Positions 6,246-48,195 of a stretch of 64,000 bases of DNA are shown one piece after another. This DNA comes from Candidatus Poribacteria bacterium. GTDB lineage: Bacteria > Poribacteria > WGA-4E > PCPOR2b. Each line of letters begins with the position of its first letter. Within the stretch, counting starts at the first letter, position 1. A program made the position numbers and the translations under genes. Under the pieces are notes generated by a model. The model was not told where the DNA came from and ran no database searches. It worked only from the letters and a program-made list of their open reading frames with translations. The DNA is taken from assembly GCA_965208675.1 (NCBI GenBank), contig OZ242351.1, positions 2,144,001-2,208,000 on the forward strand. Direction: 5' to 3'.

Positions 6246-6815
6246 TTATTTGTTTGGTTCACCAAAATCTTTCCCTTCCAGAAAGTCGTCTAATTCAACT
6301 CCGAACGCGTCCGCTATCCGATTGACATAGTTGAAAAAGCCAACGACCTCCACAATGGCGAAGAGCGCCTCGTCGGAAAGTCCAAAACCGCGGAGGTGCT
6401 CTAAGTCTGCTGGTGTAACCGTAGGTGCTGCTTTGGTTACCTTAATGGCAAATTCAAGGATTGCTTTTGTGGTTTCGTCAATATCAGCGGTATGAAAATC
6501 CGCCACGATCTGAGCAATCTGCTTGTCAGTGAGTTGTTCCCGCAACTCGTCCGCATGCGATATTACTCAATAGCGGCATTCGTTCACTTTCGATACAACG
6601 GTGGCAATCATTTCGCGTTGCATTCGACTAAGCGGGGACTCTTCGTCGTGCATCACGATTTTGTAGAGTTCAATAAAAGCGCGCATACTTTTCGGCCGCG
6701 CACTGAAAAGTTTGACGATATTGTAAACTCGCCCTGCTCGCGCAATTGCCGCGTCGTATTCCTCTTTCACGATACCAGCCGCATTAACGTCATCTACAGT
6801 GCGAATCCATGCCAT
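6246..6815 (-). CDS. AhpD/carboxymuconolactone decarboxylase-like peroxidase, probable selenoprotein (189 aa, Sec at codon 83)
   Basis: ORFs 6567..6815 and 6246..6545 share a frame and are separated only by TGA: SKVNECRY-TGA-VISHADELREQ, giving CxxU where the family has CxxC. A SECIS-like hairpin follows. Confidence 0.85.
6531..6548 (-). promoter_or_regulatory. Putative bacterial SECIS element
   Basis: Hairpin GAGUUG-CGGGAA-CAACUC; its G-rich apical loop starts 24 nt after the in-frame UGA. Confidence 0.65.
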
Positions 6816-32545: not shown

Positions 32546-33289
32546 GTGGCAGAGATGAGCACCGTGAAGCGATCGTACCTAGCTATGCTTTTATCAATAA
32601 TTCCAGGAATGGGCCAACTCTATTTGCGCAAACCGCTGAAGGGTTTGATTCTGTTTTTGGGAGTTCTCTCCGCGGGCGCGGTGATTTACATCAGTTCGCT
32701 CCCGGTAAATGATTGGCGTGATTTGGTGCGCTTTGATGGACTTGAAACTTGGTGGGCATCCCGGCAGGCTGACATAGAGACGCGGGAAGATGCTGGAAAG
32801 TCCGAACCTACTGCCGCGAAAGCAGAAGTATATCAAGAGCGCGATTATCATTTGTACACATTTGACGATAATTTTCTTTTTCGCATAGCACCGAAGTTCC
32901 AAAAGGATTTAGACACTAGCATCATCTCGGAAAGATTACGGCGGACATTTAAGGACAATAACATCCTACTCTCAAAGGACGCTATTGCTTCAGTAAACAA
33001 GACCAACAACCGATGGATAATTTCGCAGGGCGATCGAACTTACGCCGTCAGGAAGGTAGATGGACAGTTAAACGTTTACGCCGCCAAGAAGTTAATGTAT
33101 CGTCCCTCCTGGAAATTTAAAATCAGCGGCTTTATTCAAGGCATTGTCTTTTGGATCTACGCCATCTATGATGGATGGAAGGGCCGGAGAGGATTTAATC
33201 GGCGGGCGCTTAAGAAAAAAATGAAGAAAACTGAACAAGATACAGTAGACGAGAGCGAACAAATAAATGATGGCGCGATAAAAAGTTGA
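32546..33289 (+). CDS. Hypothetical membrane protein (IPGxGQLY type) carrying one copy of the ~70-aa insertion module
   Basis: LSIIPGMGQLY...WIYAIYD TM scaffold; GTG start after GGAGG. Confidence 0.7.
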   Translation: MAEMSTVKRSYLAMLLSIIPGMGQLYLRKPLKGLILFLGVLSAGAVIYISSLPVNDWRDLVRFDGLETWWASRQADIETREDAGKSEPTAAKAEVYQERDYHLYTFDDNFLFRIAPKFQKDLDTSIISERLRRTFKDNNILLSKDAIASVNKTNNRWIISQGDRTYAVRKVDGQLNVYAAKKLMYRPSWKFKISGFIQGIVFWIYAIYDGWKGRRGFNRRALKKKMKKTEQDTVDESEQINDGAIKS

Positions 33290-43010: not shown

Positions 43011-46000
43011 CTATCCCGCACGGTGATAGCCATGCCCTTCACCGGTAATTTGGTATAGGGCATCCGCTGTCCAGAAATGCACCTCAGGATCGTCATCGTC
43101 CAAAGCCGTTTCGAGCACAGATATAGCACCTTGATGCTTTGACGCGGCAAGTCCCTTGATGATGTCTAACCTCAAATTCTTGGTCGTCTGATTCACCGGA
43201 AGCGATTTCAGTTTTTCAATCAATGCCGAAACGGCGGCGTCAGTCCCTATTTTTCCAAGTGCAATTGCGGCATCGCGGCGAATCTCTTCATGATTGGTTT
43301 CAGTGTTGAAGACATCTATAAGATCGGGCACGGTGGAGGCGTCTGCGAATTCACCTACACCTTGCGTGGCTCCGCGCCGCACATCTTTATCCGATTCTGT
43401 TTCACCTTTCATAATTTTCACAATTTCATCTTGAAATTCTCGAAGCTTGCCTTCACCAATTCCAAGCGCTGTGGACTGGCGGACTTCTTTTTTCTTGTCA
43501 TTCAGCAGTTCTCTAAGCTTCGATATGGCTTCCGGGGTTTTGGACCTTCCAAGCGCATTGGCGGCTGCGGCCTTAATGGGCCAACTTTCAGGTTTACTAC
43601 TCTCGACTCGCTCAATCATCTTGTTCGCCACGAAGGGTGACAATTGAAACGGTTTGGAGGCACTGACGAACGCCTCAAACACAGGGTTGTGGGTAAATGT
43701 ATCCGGTGTTATCGTCACGCTATATTCAGTGTCGTCAACGAGCCGCCTGCTTATTGATTCAGCCGCACGGCTATCCCCAATTGCCGCGAGCGCGTCGGCG
43801 GCAATCGTACGGGTGTCCGACTCCAGGCTTCGATCTTCGAGAATAGCTATCAATTCCGTCACGGCTTCACGACTTTTGAGTTTGCCAAGCGCCGTAATAA
43901 CGCTCTTGTGGACAGTTCCGGTTTCTGCTCTAAAAATGCGAAGGATTGCCGCTTCCGAGCTGCGGTCGCCAATCAAACCGAGTGCAGTTACACAAGCCGT
44001 CCGCACCGATGTATCCTCTAGAGGGTTATGGAGGATTTCAATTAGTTTATTGACAGCGTTTGCCCCTTTGATAACGCCCAATGCTGTTGCAGCCTGCAAC
44101 CGAACTTCAGCGTTCTCATCGTCTAACGCAGCAAGGAGCGGAACGGAAGCACGTTCGTCACGCAACTTCGCCAATGACGCGGCTGCCGCCGCTCGAATTG
44201 ACTTTGACTCATTCGTATTTTCAAGCACCGCAGTTAAGTCGGCAACAGCACTTCGATCTTTGAGTTTTCCAAGTGCAGCCACTGCCTCTTTGCGAACAAG
44301 GTAGCTCTGATTTGCCATCTCCTCACGTATCGCAGCCATTAAGTTTTGATGCAGCGCCGGCGTCATTGTTACCTTGTCGGACGTCCCCCGGATTTCTCCG
44401 ATTGTATGTACAACTGCCCAGCGTATCCATTCTTCATCATCGTGGACGGATTTCAGCGCATCAAGCAGCCAATTGATTGTAGACGCATTACCATCTTTGA
44501 CGAGTGAAGCAATCACTTCATTCATTACGGATTGGACTTCGTGCTTTTCTTCAAAGGGCCCTAAGCCTTTTTTCAACACATCGACCAACCCGCTGTCAGC
44601 TAATTCTTGCTTTAGTTCACGCAAAGTGATTGCGGCTTGTTTACGAGTTTTTTCAAACTTGTCCCTTTTGAGAGATGTTAGCAAAGGACCGACCACCTTT
44701 TCCCCTTTGATTTTGTTTAACGCAGCCGCAGCCTCTTGCCGCACAATGCCGTGCTCATCATTCTTGAGCGCATCAATCAAGTGGGAAATAACGGATTCTC
44801 CGTTGATATCTCCTAAAGCTAGCGCAGCACTCCGGCGAACGGCTGCACGCTCGTCGTCCTTCAGGGCGTGAAACAGCGCATCCAGTACTTGGTCACCTTG
44901 GGTGTAGACGTTTAGGCTTTCACCGACTTTCCGGAAATGGTACCGCTGCTGGTTTTCTTTATCGGTTACAAACCAAATTTCGCCTGCCCGCTCGACTACA
45001 ATAGTTGGGTTTTGAGAGAGTGCGATTTCTTTATCTTTAAGTGCATGCCGTAAATTTTCCGGAATCTTGCCACTGTTTAGATCTGTGACATACTCGGCTA
45101 ATTGAGCGCTGGAAAACAGTAATTTTCCTCTAATCTTGCCCAGTGAGATGGCTGCCTCGCTTCGGACAAGACCGGGAATCGGCTTTAATTCTCCCCACTT
45201 TTGATAATCAGGTTGCGGATATTCAGGCGTCCATTGAATACCTAAGGCATCAACAGCAACGCCCAATGCCTCAAGGGTCTTATGTTGCCTTTTCATGTGC
45301 CGTTGGAAATCCTTGACATCTTCGTAGCGTGTTGACAAAACCCATAAAAGCGCAGACACTGTTTCTTGTGCTTTAATTTCTCCCAAAACTGCCGCTGCGT
45401 CTTTTCGAATAATTTCACTGGTCTCATCGCTGAACATCAACTGCATCATTGGCTGAACCGCTTGGTTTGTCTCGAGTTGACTTAATGCGGAAAGCGCCGC
45501 CCTCCTTATCGTCTCGCGTCCACGTTTGTTCATCGCCATTGCGATGAGTTTGCTAATTGCCCGCTCACTCTCATTGTTGATGTTGCCGAGTGCGACGGCA
45601 GCGTTAGTTGCAGTGGTATCATCTAAATCAAGGGCGTCAGTCAGTGCATCAACAGCGATGTTGTTCCTACCAGGGGTTTTCATCGTGCCGAGGGCTTTAG
45701 CCGCAGCCGCTTTGACTTCCTTTCTGGGATCGCTCTTTAGAGATTCGCTGAGGGAGGGTAACGTTCGCAAATCTCCAATCAAGTCCATGACCTCGGCGGT
45801 CCGAATCCTGATAAAATCCCTGGAAACTTTTAGGTTACCCGCGTCTTTTCTGACATTATAGGTTCTTTTTTTATGATGTTTACTTTTATCAGTTATCAAC
45901 CATTTGCTGTCTTCTTCCTCAAGAAAAATGGATACATTTTCAGAAACGGCGAATCCGTTATTTTCCAACACCCGTTTTAAATTCGCCGAGACGTATCCGT

Positions 46001-47306
46001 TGTTTAGATCGTTCTGGAACTCCGTGCTGATAAGAAATGACGGATAACGCAGCGCTTGAATCAGATGGGGAACAGCAACTTCCTTCATTACGGCCAACGC
46101 ACTAGCTACCTCTCCATGTAAATCATCGTTTTCAAAAAGATTGATTAGCCGTGCAACGGCACTCTTGGCTCTCAGGGCACCAAGGGTCTGAATCGCTGCG
46201 GCTTGGGTGCTGATTCGGCGGTTTTTCAGCCGGTCTGTATCAATATAGACATTTGCAATGTACTGATACTCATTCCTGAAATTAGGTTCGTCATCTTCCT
46301 CTGGAATTACGTTCCTAGCCCCTGAGTCCAATACTTCAATCAATGGATCAATTGATAACGGTCCAATCTGGATCAGTGCGGTCATTGCGCTGTTTTTGAC
46401 GTGTTCATTGGCATCTGCGAGCAACCGGACTAGATCTACTATGGAATCTTCTGACTTCAGTATACCGAGCAGCTTTGCGGATAACATACGCACCTGTGCG
46501 ACGTTAGTCCTTGTGGCAAGCTTCAGTGCGGGAATAATGCTTTGCTGGTCTTTTAACCCCTCTAGCGCTACAATTGCCTCGTACAACACATCTGCCGATT
46601 CATCCTTTTTATTCAGAACGGATTCTAGCTCGCGGATGAGCCGCGGATCTTTTAAGTCTCCTAAGTGCTTTATAGCCTGTTTTCTGATGGCGGCGTCAGA
46701 ATTTTGAATTTCATTGACCATCAGATTGTAAACCAAATCTTGATTATTAAGTTGCTGAATTAGTGCGGATGATGCCTGTCGATGCTGTGGATGAAAGCAA
46801 TTTTCCGCCTCCAGCAACGCCGTGATGACAACGGAATTTGGTTGACTCGCTAAGGTTGAAATGAGTTGTGTGTTTTGCTCGGCGGCTTCCGCGAGCGCGT
46901 TTGCGAAGGCACCAACAATCGAGTTTCGAGATCGAACAAGCCATTCGAGTTGGTCCAACTCATCCGAATCTGGATCCTCAAGCGTCTCCGATGCTTCAAT
47001 CTCATCCTTCAGGGGCTGTAAATTACCGAGAATTTTCTGAATGGCATTGTGCCAGTCAATCGCTTTCGTTTTCCAACCCTTACCTGAGGTTGCACGCAAC
47101 TGCAGTAACTCTTGCAGCGATTGGGCTTCGAGGTGATTCGGTTTGCTCGAAATCACGGCTTGTATCGCTGTTTGAGCAACGGTATAATTTGCATCATCCA
47201 TCGCCTTCCGCGCTTCTAGCAAGTCTTCATCCTCTTTTTCTCCACACCCAGCGAGTAAACCGATAATTAAACCAAAACTGATAGACAGGAGAAACCTGCG
47301 TTTCAT
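43011..47306 (-). CDS. Giant HEAT (PBS-lyase type) repeat lipoprotein with two inserted ~70-aa modules
   Basis: Lipoprotein signal MKRRFLLS...LLAGC after AAGGAG; more than 20 HEAT repeats of the VRxxAAxALG type. Confidence 0.88.
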   Translation of the reverse strand: MKRRFLLSISFGLIIGLLAGCGEKEDEDLLEARKAMDDANYTVAQTAIQAVISSKPNHLEAQSLQELLQLRATSGKGWKTKAIDWHNAIQKILGNLQPLKDEIEASETLEDPDSDELDQLEWLVRSRNSIVGAFANALAEAAEQNTQLISTLASQPNSVVITALLEAENCFHPQHRQASSALIQQLNNQDLVYNLMVNEIQNSDAAIRKQAIKHLGDLKDPRLIRELESVLNKKDESADVLYEAIVALEGLKDQQSIIPALKLATRTNVAQVRMLSAKLLGILKSEDSIVDLVRLLADANEHVKNSAMTALIQIGPLSIDPLIEVLDSGARNVIPEEDDEPNFRNEYQYIANVYIDTDRLKNRRISTQAAAIQTLGALRAKSAVARLINLFENDDLHGEVASALAVMKEVAVPHLIQALRYPSFLISTEFQNDLNNGYVSANLKRVLENNGFAVSENVSIFLEEEDSKWLITDKSKHHKKRTYNVRKDAGNLKVSRDFIRIRTAEVMDLIGDLRTLPSLSESLKSDPRKEVKAAAAKALGTMKTPGRNNIAVDALTDALDLDDTTATNAAVALGNINNESERAISKLIAMAMNKRGRETIRRAALSALSQLETNQAVQPMMQLMFSDETSEIIRKDAAAVLGEIKAQETVSALLWVLSTRYEDVKDFQRHMKRQHKTLEALGVAVDALGIQWTPEYPQPDYQKWGELKPIPGLVRSEAAISLGKIRGKLLFSSAQLAEYVTDLNSGKIPENLRHALKDKEIALSQNPTIVVERAGEIWFVTDKENQQRYHFRKVGESLNVYTQGDQVLDALFHALKDDERAAVRRSAALALGDINGESVISHLIDALKNDEHGIVRQEAAAALNKIKGEKVVGPLLTSLKRDKFEKTRKQAAITLRELKQELADSGLVDVLKKGLGPFEEKHEVQSVMNEVIASLVKDGNASTINWLLDALKSVHDDEEWIRWAVVHTIGEIRGTSDKVTMTPALHQNLMAAIREEMANQSYLVRKEAVAALGKLKDRSAVADLTAVLENTNESKSIRAAAAASLAKLRDERASVPLLAALDDENAEVRLQAATALGVIKGANAVNKLIEILHNPLEDTSVRTACVTALGLIGDRSSEAAILRIFRAETGTVHKSVITALGKLKSREAVTELIAILEDRSLESDTRTIAADALAAIGDSRAAESISRRLVDDTEYSVTITPDTFTHNPVFEAFVSASKPFQLSPFVANKMIERVESSKPESWPIKAAAANALGRSKTPEAISKLRELLNDKKKEVRQSTALGIGEGKLREFQDEIVKIMKGETESDKDVRRGATQGVGEFADASTVPDLIDVFNTETNHEEIRRDAAIALGKIGTDAAVSALIEKLKSLPVNQTTKNLRLDIIKGLAASKHQGAISVLETALDDDDPEVHFWTADALYQITGEGHGYHRAG

Positions 47307-47442
47307 TTGCGAACTCCTTTCGATTCGATAATGATGCAAAAATGAAGGCATGATGCGTGAAATGCGACGTGCAAAACGTGGGAAAATATTACCATTCTGC
47401 CTCTTAACGAGTGTCAATCGATAACCTAATGTATATGTATTT

Positions 47443-48195
47443 TTAAATGTTGAGGTTGTCAATGAATTTTAAGCTCTTCAAATCGCGCTCAATATGATAT
47501 GAGATAAAGGTCGCAAGCACAAACTTCAGTTCACGATGATTTAGAATTGATGCGCGAAATCTCCCCAAACGCGATAGACTAGATTTTTGGAGTTGCTGCA
47601 TTAACTGACAACTTCCTCTTGAAACCGCAATTGCATTCGCATCACGATCGCTACACCTCACACAGAGCATTCCGCCAAAACGAGAACTAAAATGCAACGT
47701 GGCATCCTTGAAGGCGTGGGTACAAGCCACACAGTGGGAAAGCTGCGGCGACAATCCCGCTAAGCCAAGCAATTGTAACTCGAAAGCACGCGCAAATAAC
47801 GCAATATCATCGACTTGCGCCATGGTTTCAAATCCGTGCTGCAGCAGGTGAAAAATCTGTTGGTCGACCGAATGATCGGACTCAATTGCGCCAATAAGTT
47901 CCGCGAGATAACAGCCGTAAATTGTTCGATCGAAATCTGCTTTGATTCCTTCAAAGGAACTAATCAAGTCAAAGTCATTGACAATCTGCAAATCTTTGTT
48001 CGGACGCTCAAAAAACACTAAGGTACCGTAATTCAGGAGTTCAAGACCTCCTGCCAAACGACTTTTCGGTCGTCTGACGCCTCGGGCAACAGCTTTAATC
48101 TTACCAAACTCGGCGGTATAAAAAGTGATGATTTTATCAGATTCACGGAGAGGATAAAATCGAATGACAATCGCAGGTGTTTTTTGGACTGGCAT
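47443..48195 (-). CDS. recO: DNA repair protein RecO
   Basis: ESDKIITFYT...GKIKAVARGVRRPKSR, zinc finger CVAC/CVRC, LKSLKF. Confidence 0.93.
   Translation of the reverse strand: MPVQKTPAIVIRFYPLRESDKIITFYTAEFGKIKAVARGVRRPKSRLAGGLELLNYGTLVFFERPNKDLQIVNDFDLISSFEGIKADFDRTIYGCYLAELIGAIESDHSVDQQIFHLLQHGFETMAQVDDIALFARAFELQLLGLAGLSPQLSHCVACTHAFKDATLHFSSRFGGMLCVRCSDRDANAIAVSRGSCQLMQQLQKSSLSRLGRFRASILNHRELKFVLATFISYHIERDLKSLKFIDNLNI

Follow-up and report, generated by a model that had tools for sequence, protein, structure and literature searches.

Inteins are in-frame occupants of essential proteins, patchily distributed among orthologues and with clean empty sites; they carry Cys or Ser as first residue, His-Asn at the end, and Cys, Ser, or Thr as the next residue of the host. 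Rickettsia palindromic elements (RPEs) are, according to a review (PMC10969869), intragenic MITEs (transposable elements of the miniature inverted-repeat class) of about 150 bp that lie in frame in many unrelated genes, housekeeping genes among them; the encoded peptide is described there as compatible with the fold of the host, and related species differ in the copies they carry. Palindromic amphipathic repeat coding elements (PARCEL), according to their description (PMC2996958), are tandem elements spread among unrelated genes and organisms, which suggests mobility. The subject of this study is a coding module of about 71 residues that occurs three times in a stretch of 64,000 nucleotides (the window) on contig OZ242351.1 of a Candidatus Poribacteria bacterium (assembly GCA_965208675.1), twice inside the gene of a HEAT-repeat lipoprotein. 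The segments are a real, lineage-restricted domain that has been repeatedly inserted and deleted. The relevant features of the window are:

43011..47306, minus strand: HEAT-repeat lipoprotein of 1431 amino acids (aa), host gene of copies A and B (HEAT_2 E 5e-103; orthologues of 1430-1431 aa; one N-terminal hydrophobic segment).
45822..46043, minus strand: module copy A (74 aa), placed in the turn that follows the AVPHLIQALRYP helix of the HEAT protein.
44904..45122, minus strand: module copy B (73 aa), placed in the loop that follows the AAISLGKIRG helix; the block plus a short linker ending in TQ extends to about 44895.
32546..33289, plus strand: host of copy C, a membrane protein of 247 aa unrelated to the HEAT host (weak, sub-threshold DUF5683 match; N-terminal hydrophobic segment).
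32873..33079, plus strand: module copy C, residues 110-178 of the 247-aa protein.

The stop-to-stop open reading frame (ORF) around the HEAT gene covers 43011-47462 on the minus strand (1483 aa). The ATG at 47306 is the likely start, as it is followed by a lipoprotein signal (MKRRF...LLAGC, lipobox LLAGC) and yields a protein equal in length to the database orthologues. The protein is a HEAT-repeat array, matched by HEAT_2 over 16 stretches (E 5.2e-103) and by HEAT_PBS (E 3.3e-56). A first-pass annotation, made from the letters of the window, had described two related non-HEAT segments in this array. Both peptides were reproduced letter for letter, and BLASTP aligned A with B at 22 identical residues out of 67 (E 2e-12). 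When a profile of A and B was run against the window's 781 six-frame ORFs with a length of 40 aa or more, a single further match was returned (ORF 32546-33286, plus strand, residues 111-178, E 2.3e-12), namely copy C, which had been announced as a third copy 12 kb away in an unrelated protein; the next-best match had an E-value of 0.54. Segments A and B are neither degenerate HEAT repeats nor chance resemblances nor a known domain.

Orthologues of the HEAT protein defined the insertion sites exactly. In the following, G-numbers denote the genomes of relatives, f-numbers families, and g-numbers genera; the window genome belongs to family f1. The HEAT orthologue was found in 31 of 31 relatives, and 19 of 30 loci were aligned, the extra genomes of genera g5, g8, and g11 being left out. 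Copy A was restricted to the genus of the window genome (four of four genomes) and to G009 (genus g7). Copy B was present in the same genus, in G006 (g4), and in family f3 (G020, G023, and G026), and absent from 11 of the 19 aligned orthologues; both copies were missing in 10. With slashes marking the junctions, the occupied site of A reads ALRYP/SFLIS...LKVS/RDFIR against the empty ALKDP/RDDIR, and that of B reads GKIRG/KLLF...NVYTQ/GDQV against GKIK/GDEV. Orthologues without A, B, or both are thus joined precisely where the first-pass annotation had predicted that removal of the inserts would restore normal repeats, and the two inserts do occupy different loops of the repeat unit. Besides the form with both copies and that with neither, orthologues with B only (G006, family f3) and with A only (G009) exist. 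Copies A and B share 33% identity, compared with 39% to other copies, and are not mutual nearest paralogues. For these two reasons independent insertion of A and B, as originally proposed, is supported, and the two copies do not stem from repeat duplication within the HEAT array.

The window's copies are old and have been inherited vertically. When contigs from four sponge-metagenome runs were compared with positions 44700-46300, no joint or indel across A or B appeared. At window position 45121, contigs of a related organism from two sponge-metagenome runs follow the HEAT gene precisely as far as the edge of B and continue into a diverged, f3-like B; the B module is therefore diverging more rapidly than the sequence around it. 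Within copy A of G009 there are short tandem duplications (RWLITRWLIT and DKTKITDKTK), which indicate local slippage inside the module.

The window genome (4.89 Mb, a single contig) was searched through 62,163 six-frame ORFs. The iterated profile returned 23 domains in 20 ORFs, and a whole-genome six-frame search gave 25 matches in about 21 genes, every one inside open frames of 203-2282 aa; none of these 25 matches was found outside long ORFs, in intergenic DNA, or in another frame. The copies measure 207-243 bp and lie in frame in about 21 unrelated ORFs. Together with the variation of the inserts among orthologues, these numbers bear out the earlier view that the module has spread into unrelated genes. 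Pfam scans of 18 hosts placed it at residues 100-170 of AspRS, inside the OB anticodon-binding domain, and at residues 172-246 of sigma-54, inside the core-binding domain. These hosts are the only bacterial-type AspRS match (E 1e-30) and the sole sigma-54 match (E 1e-15) of the genome. Further hosts are RseP, CtaA/COX15, a Wzy_C protein, UPF0182 (two tandem copies), a DUF255 thioredoxin-like protein, TamB, an M23 peptidase, two ECF-sigma fusions, a TPR protein, DUF4861, and several proteins without any family. A word-based homologue search with the module alignment returned only 29 orthologues of window-genome hosts, with no informative names, and a locus search with a single copy returned two genomes of the window genus only. 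In one copy, at genome position C1:3352228-3353949, an in-frame TAG breaks the reading frame directly ahead of the conserved Trp (...SIEDKGS*WLIVNHE...), while G001 and G002 have intact orthologues of 574 aa; a pseudogene, a mistake in the assembly, or read-through of the stop may account for it.

Several of these genes also have occupied and empty forms. AspRS with the module (675 aa) was found in the genus of the window genome and in families f3 and f2; in the rest of f1 and in f4 there are forms of 588-631 aa that match from residue 172 only. The insert sits cleanly in an OB-fold loop (VRERIEG/DLLFNL...VSVYL/GTINLN versus VRERGE/GLTNPN). In a tree of 17 AspRS sequences without the insert, the window genus is nested inside f3 rather than in its own family (support 0.97), and the insert-bearing allele was therefore probably acquired laterally; this placement suggests that an essential gene was replaced between Poribacteria lineages. 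In a tree of the modules, A copies group and B copies group, and the signal is too low to prove orthology of the AspRS inserts of the window genus, f3, and f2. The sigma-54 module is present in f1, f2, and f3 and absent from f4 in four of four genomes searched, where frames of 503-529 aa match residues 5-170 and 249-578; sigma-54 of G005 and G009 carries one and a half tandem copies.

A sensor histidine kinase of 579 aa carries the module at residues 168-234 in G001, G002, and G003. Its orthologue in the window genome (C1:1739659-1741155) lacks exactly 81 residues, in frame, and is 96% identical to that of G002 over a 335-residue flank after the gap. Read against the genus tree derived from the HEAT gene, the module was, most simply, recently lost in the window genome. 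Immediately ahead of the junction, eight residues show unusual divergence (VELFAEPE versus VQLYIQPD), as if the junction region had been replaced rather than simply deleted. The trigger factor insert of G031 is a clean block that is absent from the window-genome orthologue. The SecA module of G033 lies in a variable region, in which the window genome has an unrelated shorter segment and no clean empty site, and the RseP pieces of relatives leave residues 258-362 unaligned, where a diverged module may still be present.

Profile matches were found in 31 of 31 near relatives. Across the phylum Candidatus Poribacteria, 167 of 176 genomes matched at E 1e-5 or better, each of them between 5 and about 40 times. 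The module was present in none of the three genomes of family f5 and in two of the eight of f8, both matches being weak. No match at E 1e-3 or better was obtained among 65 genomes from 65 other families of bacteria. As far as sampled, the module is confined to Candidatus Poribacteria and one or more uncultured lineages related to them; to our knowledge, the Poribacteria have no cultured member. Different lineages carry the module in different sets of hosts. In G031 these are signal peptidase S26, an S41 peptidase, an ABC permease, trigger factor, a TPR/transglutaminase protein, a C25 peptidase, and ComEC; in G033 they are a BamA-like POTRA protein, an MFS transporter, a RAMP protein, SecA, and RseP. 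Among the 19 host ORFs scanned in these two genomes of other classes (10 of 12 matches in G031 and 9 of 10 ORFs in G033, with G047 left out), RseP was the only host shared with the window genome.

A library search covering 1.84 billion representative proteins gave 2585 matching clusters at E 1e-3 or better and 994 at 1e-10. A Pfam scan of 76 of the 150 listed representative proteins (those of at most 640 aa) yielded 49 families co-occurring with the module, pentapeptide repeats being the commonest (seven proteins). In one family of pentapeptide-repeat proteins (P0003, P0004, P0008, P0022, P0026, and P0027), which have two to five modules each, the modules are 74-82% identical and the remainder 32-74%, a difference that suggests either concerted evolution or selection acting more strongly on the module. 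Tandem arrays reach nine module stretches in a single library protein. Proteins with three or four tandem modules were also observed in G005 (a 1303-aa ORF, C1:3255940-3257406) and in G033 (a 3983-aa ORF on contig C137); the module accordingly forms arrays as well as single loop inserts. Apparent stand-alone module proteins of 110-151 aa lie on contigs of 670-1225 bp and may be fragments.

The module is a member of no described protein family; the first-pass annotation had been unable to assign it to one. The best Pfam row was RcsC ABL (E 0.21, 11.9 bits against a cutoff of 25), NCBIfam and PADLOC gave no match, and the best E-value against the sequences of the PDB was 0.18. In an alignment of 22 of the 23 window-genome copies, the partial copy being excluded, positions F3, L15, S36, and W50 are near-invariant. 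From this alignment AlphaFold predicted a small alpha/beta fold of ~71 residues in the order strand, helix, helix, four strands (predicted local distance difference test 96, predicted template modelling score 0.81), in line with the compact alpha/beta domain proposed earlier, and the termini would lie close together. Foldseek of the model against the PDB gave nothing at E 1e-3 or better (best E 1.1). In a full VIA-align scan of 48,161 chains no row reached Z 5, and the best (Z 4.2) was the kinase-associated 1 (KA1) domain of 5iri_B, with a root-mean-square deviation of 2.7 over 57 residues and 9% identity, a Z inside the range of unrelated folds. Like KA1, or the AMPK-alpha C-terminal domain, the module is a small alpha/beta unit whose sheet has four to five strands; at a Z within background, membership is not claimed. 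A complex prediction with two module copies spoke neither for nor against self-association. A search of the ESM Atlas gave no usable match, and a literature search, to which supplementary files are out of reach, gave no description of the module. What the first-pass annotation had named as grounds for giving up its proposal, namely a weak profile, a match to a Pfam family, or fixed presence without other hosts, was in no case observed.

We consider it somewhat better than an even chance that the module is a self-folding domain of ~71 residues that behaves as a cassette, repeatedly inserted in frame into unrelated genes and cleanly deleted, and that it is largely a neutral passenger. On this interpretation, a coding cassette of ~213 bp would enter, in frame and many times over, the linkers and surface loops of genes unrelated to one another, and would also be lost by clean in-frame deletions. 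Insertion would be tolerated even in single-copy essential genes because the domain folds alone and leaves the fold of the host intact. Purifying selection then keeps the domain foldable, as the substitution ratios given below show. The best guess for movement is a DNA-level insertion duplicating a short target of about 9 bp, with removal by recombination between the flanking repeats or by replacement with the allele of a relative; the repeat signature would decay in old copies. The most likely role of the domain in the cell would be that of a largely neutral passenger, perhaps co-opted in some hosts.

Evidence for movement comes from the comparison of 301 modules from 149 representative proteins of the library, whose mean identity is 31%. 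The modules of two proteins, P0127 (344 aa, without a Pfam match) and P0147 (201 aa, with DUF6338), share 86% identity between flanks without any similarity, and the similarity stops exactly at the module limits, LLFSV...KLNIY. This pair shows a recent transfer between genes. P0127 is encoded on metagenome contig L164 (39% GC), with the module at 6472-6702, and PurC on the same contig is 57% identical to PurC of the window genome; P0127 itself was not found in the 176 phylum genomes at E 1e-25. Its module is bracketed by CTTCCCCAG and CTTCCCCAA, identical in 8 of 9 nt and encoding LPQ...LPQ, and has an 8-nt inverted repeat, TGTTTAGT and ACTAAACA, a few bases inside each end, which could be due to chance. 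The P0127 copy is the sole DNA-level hint of a transposon-like structure. A word-based search for other close young copies returned just P0194 (82%), probably the P0147 orthologue, and no relative of the young module was found on viral contigs. Around copy B a partial repeat was seen in G023 (ATTAAAGGA and AAAAAGGGA, 6 of 9 nt) and, likewise at 6 of 9, in G006; at the AspRS insert a glycine codon alone is retained.

Amino acid repeats flanking the modules were counted in representative proteins and window-genome hosts, with windows displaced by ten residues as controls. At least two of three residues matched in 38 of 213 modules (controls 20 and 17), and all three in 5 (controls 0 and 0). For the 102 isolated modules the corresponding numbers were 19 (controls 8 and 13) and 3 (controls 0 and 0). 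This modest enrichment, with few cases, is suggestive of target duplication.

A number of observations weigh against a mobile and neutral cassette. Over the 22 window-genome copies, terminal direct repeats are at chance level, with a mean longest repeat of 5.8 nt against 5.7 nt in 1100 control pairs; the same holds for terminal inverted repeats (5.8 versus 5.6 nt). All-against-all blastn of these copies gave only short, weak matches, the best being 67% over 175 nt between the tandem UPF0182 copies. The GC content at third codon positions of the modules equals that of their flanks in the window genome, and module DNA is not palindromic (folding z -1.40 and -1.43 relative to shuffled sequence). 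Copy A has no flanking repeat, and the case for target duplication comes from one young copy and a modest statistical enrichment. The linked mobilising enzyme that the first-pass annotation had suggested looking for did not turn up, no transposase, integrase, or reverse transcriptase being among the 25 co-occurring Pfam families listed. The genomes read give no indication that the module moves at present: identity among paralogous copies is 21-54% in the window genome (mean 30%, the UPF0182 tandem pair being the closest) and at most 58% in G005 (mean 31%; 32 of 37 matches compared, five partial ones excluded). A single gain of each copy, followed by two to four losses, suffices to explain the patchiness of A and B, which may thus reflect loss rather than gain to a large extent. 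In the HEAT gene tree (FastTree, a single gene with inserts removed, midpoint-rooted, some node supports being as low as 0.44), B requires one gain and four losses or three gains, and A one gain and two to three losses or two gains. For AspRS, part of the patchiness is lateral replacement of whole alleles. Finally, the better conservation of modules than of flanks in the pentapeptide-repeat family hints at function rather than neutrality.

Function is the substance of the strongest alternative, which we regard as a less probable yet serious explanation: the module would be a working part, a shared binding, docking, or small-molecule-sensing domain spread by ordinary domain shuffling, and its distribution would reflect selection. 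The modules are translated and under purifying selection, as shown by ratios of nonsynonymous to synonymous substitution (dN/dS; Nei-Gojobori, within the genus) well below 1 for all copies tested. Copy B (0.16-0.22) is constrained like its host, the rest of the HEAT gene (0.16-0.20), whereas copy A (0.31-0.57) and the AspRS module (0.15-0.39, rest of AspRS 0.09-0.31) are less constrained than theirs, which argues against a working part. Several polar positions are kept across copies (DLD, LS, LR, and RK in the consensus), and the tandem arrays of up to nine stretches and the well-kept modules of the pentapeptide-repeat proteins also speak for function. So does the occurrence of membrane or signal segments in 16 of 20 window-genome hosts according to a crude hydropathy scan, which found none in AspRS, sigma-54, the TPR protein, and one sigma fusion. 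However, the hosts are both cytoplasmic (AspRS, sigma-54, trigger factor, and SecA) and extracytoplasmic (RseP, CtaA, TamB, and the HEAT lipoprotein), so that one compartment-specific partner is unlikely, and the earlier suggestion of a tag specific to exported proteins has to be abandoned. Clean losses recur, one of them recent in the window genome, with the host genes retained, and no structural or sequence relative points to an activity.

The cassette interpretation can also be sharpened into a more specific claim, to which we assign a rather low probability. The module would then be an undescribed mobile element, a domain cassette of ~213 bp with a target duplication of ~9 bp, removable by recombination between its flanking repeats and still active in at least one uncultured lineage, that of P0127 and P0147. 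Such an element would survive in essential genes by encoding a self-folding domain with neighbouring ends.

It is improbable that differential loss explains everything, i.e., that all insertions took place once in an early ancestor of the phylum and were followed by loss and lateral exchange of alleles, nothing having moved since. The uniformly low identity of about 30% among paralogues, with no young copies in the two genomes examined, would fit this scenario, as would the single-gain histories available for A and B, the kinase loss as one recent event of the window genome, and the allele replacement seen for AspRS. Yet the ancestor would need very many copies, given that distant classes share only RseP of the 19 host ORFs scanned; the 86%-identical pair in unrelated genes and the duplications in situ (the one and a half sigma-54 copies of G005 and G009, the micro-duplications in copy A of G009) also speak against it. 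Removal of the segment after transcription or translation, as by an intein or an in-frame intron of a new kind, would explain the tolerance in essential proteins and shares with inteins the patchy in-frame insertion into conserved essential genes, but is very improbable in view of variable junction residues without intein nucleophiles, a length of 71 aa far below known intein sizes, the presence of the domain at protein termini and in tandem arrays, and the selection at the amino acid level and confident globular fold that fit a retained domain.

The module is a rare case of a protein unit that moves naturally between genes, here in sponge-symbiont bacteria. Whole folded domains are seldom gained inside loops of bacterial proteins, and the literature searched contained no case of one small domain that, within a lineage, entered unrelated genes by the dozen, among them those of AspRS, sigma-54, SecA, trigger factor, and RseP, and was cleanly gained and lost between relatives. 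A mechanism that mobilises the module, if there is one, would open a new route to new protein architectures in bacteria, and a selfish coding element, if that is what the module is, would be a bacterial counterpart of exon shuffling. Even as a tolerated passenger, the module would be of use: its positions mark sites at which essential proteins naturally permit insertion, protein engineers could employ it as a scaffold that tolerates insertion, and its presence or absence gives sharp markers for Poribacteria.

Among the known systems, inteins differ from the module in having splice-junction residues and a nuclease part, and the module is about half the size of the smallest intein. Its junctions read P/SFL..KVS/R (A), G/KLL..YTQ/G (B), G/DLL..VYL/G (AspRS), and D/LSL..TSP/K (kinase), without the residues expected of an intein, and apparently the protein retains the segment. 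From ordinary inserted or promiscuous domains, such as PDZ in RseP (surveyed in PMC13114784), the module differs in that it is phylum-restricted and without a named family, sits in more than 20 unrelated hosts per genome, AspRS, sigma-54, SecA, and trigger factor being among its hosts, and is present or absent between genera and even within a genus. With PARCEL it shares the occurrence of coding modules in unrelated genes, and it differs as a single globular domain without palindromy.

The likeness to RPEs drawn by the first-pass annotation holds at the level of concept and fails at the level of DNA. RPEs are palindromic and recognised in the DNA, whereas module copies have about 30% protein identity, no DNA similarity, terminal repeats no more frequent than chance, no palindromic fold, and no copy outside a long ORF; unlike RPEs, the module is also a complete folded domain under purifying selection. 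Of the traits by which MITEs and RPEs are recognised, the module lacks nucleotide-level recognisability, inverted repeats or palindromy, and intergenic or other-frame copies, and it was not filed as an RPE since these nucleotide-level features are the defining ones. Small size and in-frame insertion into unrelated ORFs are present. RPEs are the nearest concept to the module: a short cassette, in frame, in many unrelated genes, with copies differing between relatives.

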